IMG/VR virus record: IMGVR_UViG_2579778989_000007
Coordinates: 1-4,231 of that record
Strand: one strand, 5' to 3'
DNA length: 4,231 nt
DNA from: a virus
Taxonomy: Duplodnaviria; Heunggongvirae; Uroviricota; Caudoviricetes
This document shows positions 2,884 to 4,231 of the stretch, in pieces (within the stretch, counting starts at the first letter, position 1; every line of letters starts with the position of its first letter). The position numbers were made by a program, and so were the translations under genes. Under the pieces are notes generated by a model. That model did not search any database, was not told the origin of the DNA, and worked only from the letters and a program-made list of their open reading frames with translations.

Positions 2884-3079
2884 TTACATCATCATTTCGC
2901 CGTCAGGCTGAGGCCCTTCACTACCGTCAGGCTGAGACCCGACGCCATCTGAAACAGCACTGTCATCCGCAATGCCTTCCGGCTCCGGAACAGTCGGTGC
3001 GCCCAGCAGTTCATCCAGAATTGAATCCACTTCTGCATCAAGACGCGCCTCAAGGTTCTGCCGAAGTTGCTGTTTCAGT
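2884..3079 (-). pseudogene. 3' fragment (about 64 codons) of an unidentified gene truncated by the IS66-family insertion; ends in an acidic low-complexity tail (...DSAVSDGVGSQPDGSEGPQPDGEMMM)
   Basis: Minus-strand frame is open from the IS boundary to TAA at plus 2884-2886 with no ATG and no ribosome-binding site in the fragment. Translation is protein-like (LKQQLRQNLEARLDAEVDSILDELLGAPTVPEPEGIADD...). Abuts the GTAAGCG IS terminus at 3080. Identity of the parent gene unknown. Confidence 0.4.
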
Positions 3080-4231
3080 GTAAGCGACTCGTCAGAACCG
3101 TATTGATATTTACTGAGATCTCAGATCAACTTTCCAGGGCAACAGATCGCGTACCCGGTTTGCCGGCCAGTCCTGGATATGTTCAATGACGTAACGCAGC
3201 CACTTTTCTGGCTCCACATTGTTCAGACGGCATGTGCCGATCAGCGAGTACAACACCGCCGCATGTTCACCACCGCTGTCGGAACCCGCGAACATCCAGT
3301 TTTTCCGGCCTACGGCCACTCCCCGTAAGGCGTTCTCTGCGATGTTGTTGTCGATTTCCACCCAGCCATTACTGCAGTACACGTTCAGTGCATCCCACTG
3401 TTTCAGCAGGTATGCGAACGCTTTTGCCGTATCTGAGTGACGCGACAGTGTTTTCATCTGTTGCTGTATCCAGTCATACAGTGACTGCATCAGTGGCGCG
3501 GCTCTGGCTTTTCTTGCCGCCAGACGCTGTTCTGCTGAACAGCCCCGGACCTCTGCCTCGATGGCATACAGTTCACCGATACGCTGCAGGGCTTCCGTGG
3601 TGATGTAGGTGGGCGCTCTTGCATGCACATCGTGGATTTTTCTCCGGGCATGAGCCATACACGCGGCTTCCGTTATTCTGCCGGATTCGTATAACGCCCG
3701 GTAACCACCGTAAGCATCGGCCTGAAGCACACCGCTGTAACCGGCCAGGTGATTTTGTGGATGGATACCTTTCCGGTCCGGACTGTACGCGAACCAGACC
3801 GCCGGGGGCATCTGTGAACCGGCGTTACGGTCATCACGGACGTAGACCCACAGCCGGGCTGTCCGGGTTTTACCGCTGCCCGGCTCCTGGACCGGGACGG
3901 GGATATCATCAGCATGGACTTTACCGGGCATCAGCACATACTGGCGCAGGACGTCATACAGCGGCTCCAGCAGTTCAGCAACAGCACCTGTCCAGCGCCC
4001 CAGTGTGGCACGGCTCAGCTCCACTCCCTGACGACGGTATATTTCTGACTGGCGGTATAACGGCAGATGGTCTGCATATTTCCCGGTGACAACATGGGCC
4101 AGAAGCCCCGCTCCGGCATAACTGCGTGCAATGGGTTTTGAAGGTACTGGTGCCTGCACGATATGGTCGCACCGGCAACAGGCCTGTTTCGGACGTTGTG
4201 TTTCGATAACCTTAAAGGCGCTGCTGATAAG
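3080..4231 (-). mobile_element. IS66-family insertion sequence, partial (one terminus at about 3080; element continues beyond the right edge of the window)
   Basis: Contains an IS66-family transposase gene on the minus strand. Sequence at 3080-3086 is GTAAGCG, the conserved terminal motif I recall for IS66-family inverted repeats, 24 bp downstream of the transposase stop. Exact boundary not verified against ISfinder. Confidence 0.75.
3110..4231 (-). CDS. tnpC: IS66-family transposase (TnpC / Orf3), C-terminal about 374 codons; 5' end lies outside the window
   Basis: The track ORF 3110-4159 starts at a GTG, and the frame stays open upstream to the window edge (...[65 protein letters not shown]...). 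This is the Cys-rich zinc-finger-like region plus the HLPLYRQ block I recognise from IS66-family transposases, followed by a long DDE-type catalytic region. No internal stops over the visible length. Confidence 0.9.

Follow-up and report, generated by a model that had tools for sequence, protein, structure and literature searches.

The window analysed here (the whole stretch of 4,231 nucleotides at positions 1 to 4,231 of the Caudoviricetes record IMGVR_UViG_2579778989_000007) harbours a lambdoid lysis cassette, in which the holin, endolysin and nested Rz/Rz1 genes are all read in one direction (PF04971, PF00959, PF03245 and PF06085), followed on the right by a gene remnant and the end of an insertion sequence (IS). 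All substantial genes of the window lie on the minus strand except one, the DUF3950/YlcI gene (85-270, plus strand). The class II (P21 S-type) holin gene (2593-2808, minus strand; PF04971, E = 9e-33) is intact and has the same sequence as in an O104:H4 prophage; its product begins with M-Y-Q-M (2797-2808, minus strand), a possible dual start comparable to the pinholin/antiholin pair of P21 S. The gap between holin and endolysin is occupied by an intact DUF1327/YdfR-family gene (2244-2588, minus strand; PF07041, E = 2.4e-45), which is annotated in relatives, and the intact phage lysozyme (endolysin) gene (1660-2193, minus strand; PF00959, E = 2.3e-23) shows zero differences from that of the intact prophage. 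Further along lie a small ORF (1363-1536, minus strand), the intact Rz spanin gene (894-1361, minus strand; PF03245, E = 6.1e-48) and, nested within Rz in another frame, the Rz1 gene (956-1141, minus strand; PF06085, E = 1.7e-20).

Several smaller features accompany these genes. A 45-aa membrane-like ORF (…MAEKLSTWKFILIWLVFVIMASGYFIGQIRWW; 1363-1500, minus strand) abuts the start of Rz and matches phrog_6632 (E = 1.4e-29); it is unannotated in the two RefSeq records inspected, and gene callers predict a 45-aa gene at this place in two of the related loci (L014 and L020). Just upstream of it, in the gap between endolysin and Rz, a strong terminator-like hairpin of 14 pairs (1537-1569) has the form of a terminator on either strand. 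The gap between Rz and the DUF3950 gene contains a 46-aa hydrophobic ORF (403-543, minus strand), which corresponds to the hypothetical protein WP_000347013.1 in relatives and gave no PHROG match. Two sub-threshold Rfam matches, a rimP leader (29.9 bits, cut-off 47) and a eukaryotic lncRNA, were taken as chance. The ends of the window resemble those of a whole short contig of a draft assembly, the left one falling in the gap that separates the small-terminase gene from the DUF3950 gene, in DNA that several prophages per genome share.

The right-hand part of the window (3080-4231, minus strand) consists of the right-hand 1152 bp of ISCro1, a member of the IS66 family, which runs past the window's right edge. 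Over the full 1152 bp it is 99.9% identical to many E. coli copies, with a single mismatch at 3119; the name is the RefSeq/PGAP label of these 99.9%-identical copies ('IS66-like element ISCro1 family transposase'). The full copies carry tnpA-tnpB-tnpC, of which the window holds the 3' part of tnpC only (3110-4231, minus strand; 373 codons and the stop), encoding an IS66-family DDE transposase (PF03050, E = 1.5e-103; PF13817, E = 3e-16). At position 3119, T stands where the common ISCro1 has G; the third-from-last residue of TnpC is thereby Arg instead of Ser, and CTGAGATCTCAG (3113-3124) becomes a perfect 12-bp palindrome. Full-length ISCro1 measures 2699 bp in 4/4 full-length copies used for comparison, each with perfect 8-bp target-site duplications, and the element is multicopy in many E. 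coli, occupying up to 34 places per genome.

The terminus at 3080 (GTAAGCG), which an earlier note made from the letters of the window had proposed, was fixed by alignment: four independent copies of ISCro1, flanked by unrelated sequences (S49 peptidase, papC, repB and trhN), converge with the window exactly there. From the other side, the uninterrupted DUF826 gene matches the window to 3079/3080 and is unrelated beyond. The terminal inverted repeat of the transposase-proximal end (3080-3101, GTAAGCGACTCGTCAGAACCGT) pairs with the far end of a full copy over 22 nt with 73% complementarity, and a GTAAGCG start is typical of IS66-family terminal inverted repeats. The possibility that the open frame at 2884-3079 is internal to the IS was ruled out by the terminus alignment and by the 2699-bp length of full copies with 8-bp duplications.

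This minus-strand frame, which possesses a stop (2884-2886) and no usable start and had been regarded as the stump of a disrupted gene, is the 3' remnant of DUF826. Its 64-aa translation (LKQQLRQNLEARLDAEVDSILDELLGAPTVPEPEGIADDSAVSDGVGSQPDGSEGPQPDGEMMM*) covers residues 26-89 of DUF826, a protein that is 89 aa long in the intact prophage; at the nucleotide level the frame is 100% identical to codons 26-89 and the stop of the intact gene. The stump scores 73.5 bits against PF05696 (gathering cut-off 25; E = 1.6e-20) over profile positions 26-73 of 75, compared with 125.5 bits for the intact relative, while the start codon and the N-terminal 25 residues are cut off from it by the IS. A 48-aa GTG-started ORF within the stump returned no record in an exact-protein look-up. 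The stop of the stump is separated from the holin ATG (2808) by 75 bp (2809-2883) and the IS end by 271 bp, in agreement with the earlier note, which had placed an IS66-family insertion about 270 bp upstream of the holin, with 75 bp between stump and holin. These resemblances cannot be put down to chance. The DUF826 protein falls in phrog_311, a family of unknown function. Both DUF826 and DUF1378 are missing from several otherwise similar prophages; thus, the loss of DUF826 is unlikely to disable lysis and, judged from gene content, DUF826 is a dispensable accessory gene.

Comparison with an uninterrupted relative, which had been suggested as a check, was possible since positions 1-3079 of the window are 99.9% identical to a lambdoid prophage in 15 complete O104:H4-type E. 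coli genomes, in which DUF826 is intact. Only two differences occur in these 3079 bp, at 96 (synonymous) and 247 (Ser55 to Gly), both in the DUF3950/YlcI gene, and 2809-3079 is identical to the O104:H4 genomes at 271/271 nt. The Gly55 form of the DUF3950 protein is very common (8082 collection blocks in an exact look-up). With two differences in the prophage part and one in the IS part, the insertion is regarded as recent.

The candidate 8 bp singled out in the earlier note, GTTTCAGT at 3072-3079, proved to be one copy of a target-site duplication. In the coordinates of the intact O104:H4-type prophage locus (hereafter L007), these 8 bp are positions 878-885. For a simple transposition, the reciprocal junction was predicted to read GAGCCGGTTAC (IS left end), GTTTCAGT and GCGCTCCGG (5' part of DUF826), and this predicted GAGCCGGTTAC-GTTTCAGT-GCGCTCCGG junction is present, exactly, in three IMG/VR contigs and in none of the GTDB genomes or metagenomes. 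The three contigs extend 17, 169 and 1695 bp into the far end of ISCro1, the two stretches that were aligned being 100% identical; the longest of these stretches (in L009) thereby covers 1695 bp of the other end at 100% identity to a full three-gene copy. On the prophage side they align without gaps and with 99.9% identity to the intact prophage from L007 878 to 10265, 12855 and 15671 (9.4, 12.0 and 14.8 kb), Q included. Since the prophage part of the window ends at L007 885, positions 878-885 (GTTTCAGT) occur on both sides of the IS. The SNPs in the three contigs are few and confined to a small HTH gene and intergenic DNA, with none in Q or in the stretch from nanS-p to DUF826. Two slightly different haplotypes carry the same insertion, which indicates that it has been inherited within a lineage and is no assembly artefact.

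As the window ends inside the IS, the other junction of its own genome is deduced from these three sister assemblies; with the right end lying in a multicopy IS, it would be understandable that this other junction turned up on contigs of its own. None of the collections searched (complete E. coli genomes, GTDB species genomes, GenBank phages, IMG/VR and JGI metagenomes) contained the junction present in the window. This absence, along with the off-window position of the other IS end, would suit an IS that borders an IS-mediated deletion or rearrangement, by which the lysis cassette would have been left in a truncated remnant with no Q or pR' upstream; recombination between copies is conceivable for an element with up to 34 places per genome. 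Nevertheless, the window's junction keeps the duplicated 8 bp, and three assemblies contain its exact complement, in which this duplication is followed by the 99.9%-identical prophage. Such a pattern is expected where a repeat causes a simple insertion to be assembled as separate contigs, and it makes a rearrangement highly improbable. Likewise, the resemblance of the window to a short contig ending in a multicopy repeat might raise the suspicion of an assembly chimera, in which a prophage contig was joined to a repeated IS. However, the switch from prophage to IS coincides exactly with the terminus that four independent copies define, and three separate assemblies show the reciprocal junction together with a perfect 8-bp duplication; a chimera would not recreate this transposition signature, and such an origin is scarcely credible. 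The locus is thus almost certainly a simple insertion of ISCro1 in DUF826. The resulting ISCro1::DUF826 allele was encountered in three draft assemblies versus 0/5426 complete E. coli genomes.

The consequence of the insertion for lysis depends on where the late promoter lies. On going upstream from the holin, the intact prophage carries DUF826, DUF1378, a 653-aa SASA/nanS-p esterase, three tRNAs, an AraC-like regulator and the small HTH gene, upstream of which lie a pR'-tR'-like element, two convergent genes and then Q. The Q gene (L007 7727-8083; PF06530, E = 2.7e-47) is complete (118 aa) and has the same direction as the lysis genes, its stop preceding the holin start by ~7.1 kb and the insertion point by ~6.8 kb. 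The pR'-tR'-like element (L007 ~5200-5280), which lies ~4.6 kb before the holin start and ~4.3 kb before the insertion point, is homologous to a region of the 933W-type phage PA4, namely 62 nt beginning 15 nt past the Q stop, followed by a GC-rich hairpin and T-run; the Q proteins of PA4 and the intact prophage are 46% identical. In 933W and H-19B, pR'/qut and tR' are situated immediately downstream of Q. Based on this layout and on the homology to the Q-proximal region of PA4, L007 ~5200-5280 is regarded as a putative pR'-tR' module, the promoter being assigned by homology. A simple promoter scan of the intact relative did not pinpoint pR' just after Q; the PA4 homology put it 2.4 kb further on. 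No stx is present in the interval between Q and holin in the window's relatives, and PADLOC gave no match for DUF826, the AraC-like gene or the convergent gene pair that separates Q from pR'.

Some peculiarities of this interval deserve mention in their own right. Q is parted from the pR'-tR'-like element by a 2.4-kb opposite-strand two-gene module (L007 5355-7747), encoding an NA37-type nucleoid-associated protein and a 404-aa phrog_5023 protein, the end of the second gene overlapping the Q stop; such detachment is unusual. Further, related prophage loci (L012-L021) have the same DUF3950 protein as the window and head and lysis modules that are nearly identical, yet their Q proteins belong to very different families (PF06530, PF06323 and PF03589) and their cargo between Q and holin varies, including a porin, DNA methylases, a PP2C phosphatase with a Ser/Thr kinase, and GmrSD with a HEPN protein. 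One of these loci (L013) carries an IS3-family element in its terminase region.

The earlier note had started from a lambda-like arrangement, with pR' and the Q-utilisation site a few hundred bp before the holin gene S, and had therefore supposed that the late promoter lies beyond the IS or was destroyed by it. This premise does not fit the intact prophage, where the pR'-tR'-like element is ~4.6 kb and Q ~7.1 kb away from the holin. The promoter does lie beyond the IS, by homology ~4.3 kb past the insertion, and it was not destroyed, as the three reciprocal-junction contigs retain Q and the pR'-tR'-like element intact. A consensus scan of 2809-3130 (both strands over 2809-3079) revealed no promoter-like site, a weak negative that agrees with the note in placing no intact late promoter between 2809 and 3079.

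The same interval is rich in signals that would halt ordinary transcription. Between Q and holin, the intact prophage displays 22 terminator-like sites, as against 8.2 expected. One of these signals lies in the gap between DUF826 and holin (2848-2873, minus strand; -20.2 kcal/mol, z = -2.8) and was not made by the IS, as it is also present in the intact prophage (L007 654-679). A covarying hairpin occupies the homologous position in PA4 (L011 7070-7100) and in a prophage without DUF826 (L012 ~13055-13085), so that its position is conserved despite differing upstream genes, while the stem sequences differ. Its tail is a clean T-run in PA4 and in the prophage without DUF826, and an interrupted U-rich tract in the window. 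The pre-holin hairpin thus looks like a native terminator, which may shield the lysis genes from non-antiterminated transcription. Together with the many terminator-like hairpins upstream, it implies that the lysis genes of this phage group are normally reached only by processively antiterminated polymerase. In the IS itself, a scan of ISCro1 in this context found no consensus terminator on the late-transcription strand, and no stable structure was detected in its exit region. Its genes tnpA-tnpB-tnpC are co-oriented with the phage lysis genes and late transcription.

These observations bear on the suggestion of the earlier note that the lysis genes are transcriptionally orphaned or dependent on outward transcription from the IS. 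If the IS were a polar block, the lysis cassette would be cut from its promoter, and holin, endolysin and Rz/Rz1 would be silent or expressed by IS read-out only. Such an outcome could be expected from 2.7 kb of foreign DNA and a remnant of ~300 nt without translation ahead of the holin, in a region (2809-3130) devoid of promoter-like sites, and ISCro1 upstream of afaA has cut downstream transcription in ST131 (PMC8764528). The native promoter, however, was never close to the holin; the native interval was already full of terminator-like hairpins passable only to antiterminated polymerase; ISCro1 lacks a consensus terminator in the relevant direction; and PA4 continues to produce and release particles despite an IS629 in this interval. 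As for expression driven by the IS, some read-out is conceivable since no terminator follows tnpC, yet the native terminator-like hairpin at 2848-2873, located between IS and holin, would tend to stop transcription that is not antiterminated. The perfect identity of the lysis genes shows merely that the event is recent and is neutral on this question. Considering the distant native promoter, the need for Q antitermination, the missing IS terminator, the PA4 precedent and the pre-holin hairpin, silencing of the cassette is unlikely, and the suggestion of orphaned or IS-dependent lysis genes is not upheld.

The reading preferred here, which we consider quite likely, is that of a recent simple transposition of ISCro1 into DUF826, with late transcription still crossing the IS and lysis not silenced. 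According to this proposal, ISCro1 (2699 bp) inserted recently into DUF826, immediately upstream of the holin, and created the 8-bp duplication GTTTCAGT; of the split gene, the head comprises 27 codons and the tail, which the window contains, 64. Upon induction, Q-modified RNA polymerase starting at pR' would read the IS in the sense direction and would pass through it, as it already does through kilobases of cargo and several terminators, to reach holin, endolysin and Rz/Rz1. The net effect would be the loss of DUF826 and a leader longer by 2.7 kb, with the lysis genes probably remaining under Q-dependent late transcription. The ~300 nt from the tnpC stop to the holin start are now untranslated, and this stretch could give rise to Rho-dependent polarity if antitermination were incomplete.

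The sense orientation of ISCro1 within a Q-antiterminated late operon, along with the lack of an exit terminator, also makes strong transcription of tnpA-tnpB-tnpC on induction possible. In this way a burst of IS66 transposition, and the packaging of the IS into virions, could be coupled to the lytic cycle; alternatively, weak read-out from the IS promoter could provide Q-independent basal transcription in the direction of the holin. Either effect is highly improbable and unlikely to matter.

All components of the locus belong to described families, and IS insertions in lambdoid prophage cargo regions are a well-documented type of event, not a new kind of feature. Beyond annotation its importance is small, with the accessory gene DUF826 identified as the one disrupted. 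Nonetheless, in this prophage the lysis module should not be annotated as promoterless or defective on account of the nearby IS. The ISCro1::DUF826 allele can be used as a lineage marker and, provided that the source strain can be obtained, represents a natural knockout of DUF826 as well as a natural test of the tolerance of Q antitermination to a 2.7-kb insertion just upstream of the holin.

The closest parallels are provided by IS629 in Stx2a phages, such as Escherichia phage PA4 (KP682372) and the PST1-1 phages (PMC4587872), in which an IS likewise resides in non-essential cargo of the interval between Q/pR' and holin in a 933W-like late region. In PA4, IS629 splits nanS-p between Q and S and, as in the present case, the lysis and structural genes that follow are otherwise undamaged. 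The two cases differ in the IS family (IS3 in PA4 versus IS66 here), in orientation (IS629 lies opposite to late transcription, ISCro1 in the sense direction) and in target, nanS-p at ~1 kb from the holin in PA4 as compared with DUF826 at 271 bp here. The PA4 genome comes from particles that were DNase-treated and precipitated with PEG from the supernatants of cultures induced with ciprofloxacin (PMC4587872), so that particle production after induction is documented, whereas the present allele is known from sequence alone. IS elements in the Q-S interval have also been reported for several Stx2a phages, one of them being of the IS66 family (PMC10462455). The phage with the IS66-family element, F451, carries ISEc8 and resembles the present locus in having an IS66-family element between Q and S of a lambdoid prophage; however, it involves another IS66 member, at a site within or near nanS-p, in an Stx2a phage, whereas no stx is found in the interval of the window's relatives.

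The same element, ISCro1, lies upstream of an operon in E. coli ST131, where its insertion upstream of afaA reduced downstream transcription and supplied no activating outward promoter (PMC8764528). In that case, an ordinary, non-antiterminated promoter and regulatory region was cut off, whereas the promoter here would be served by a processive antiterminator. The outcome at the present locus need not equal that of afaA, as the upstream promoter is antiterminated. Polarity exerted by IS elements was reportedly found by Adhya, Gottesman and de Crombrugghe in 1974 to be relieved by lambda N antitermination, and the Roberts laboratory is said to have worked on Q-modified polymerase. Those systems were experimental gal/lambda constructs, while the present one has been described from its sequence; what they have in common with it is an IS placed inside a unit that is read by an antiterminated polymerase.
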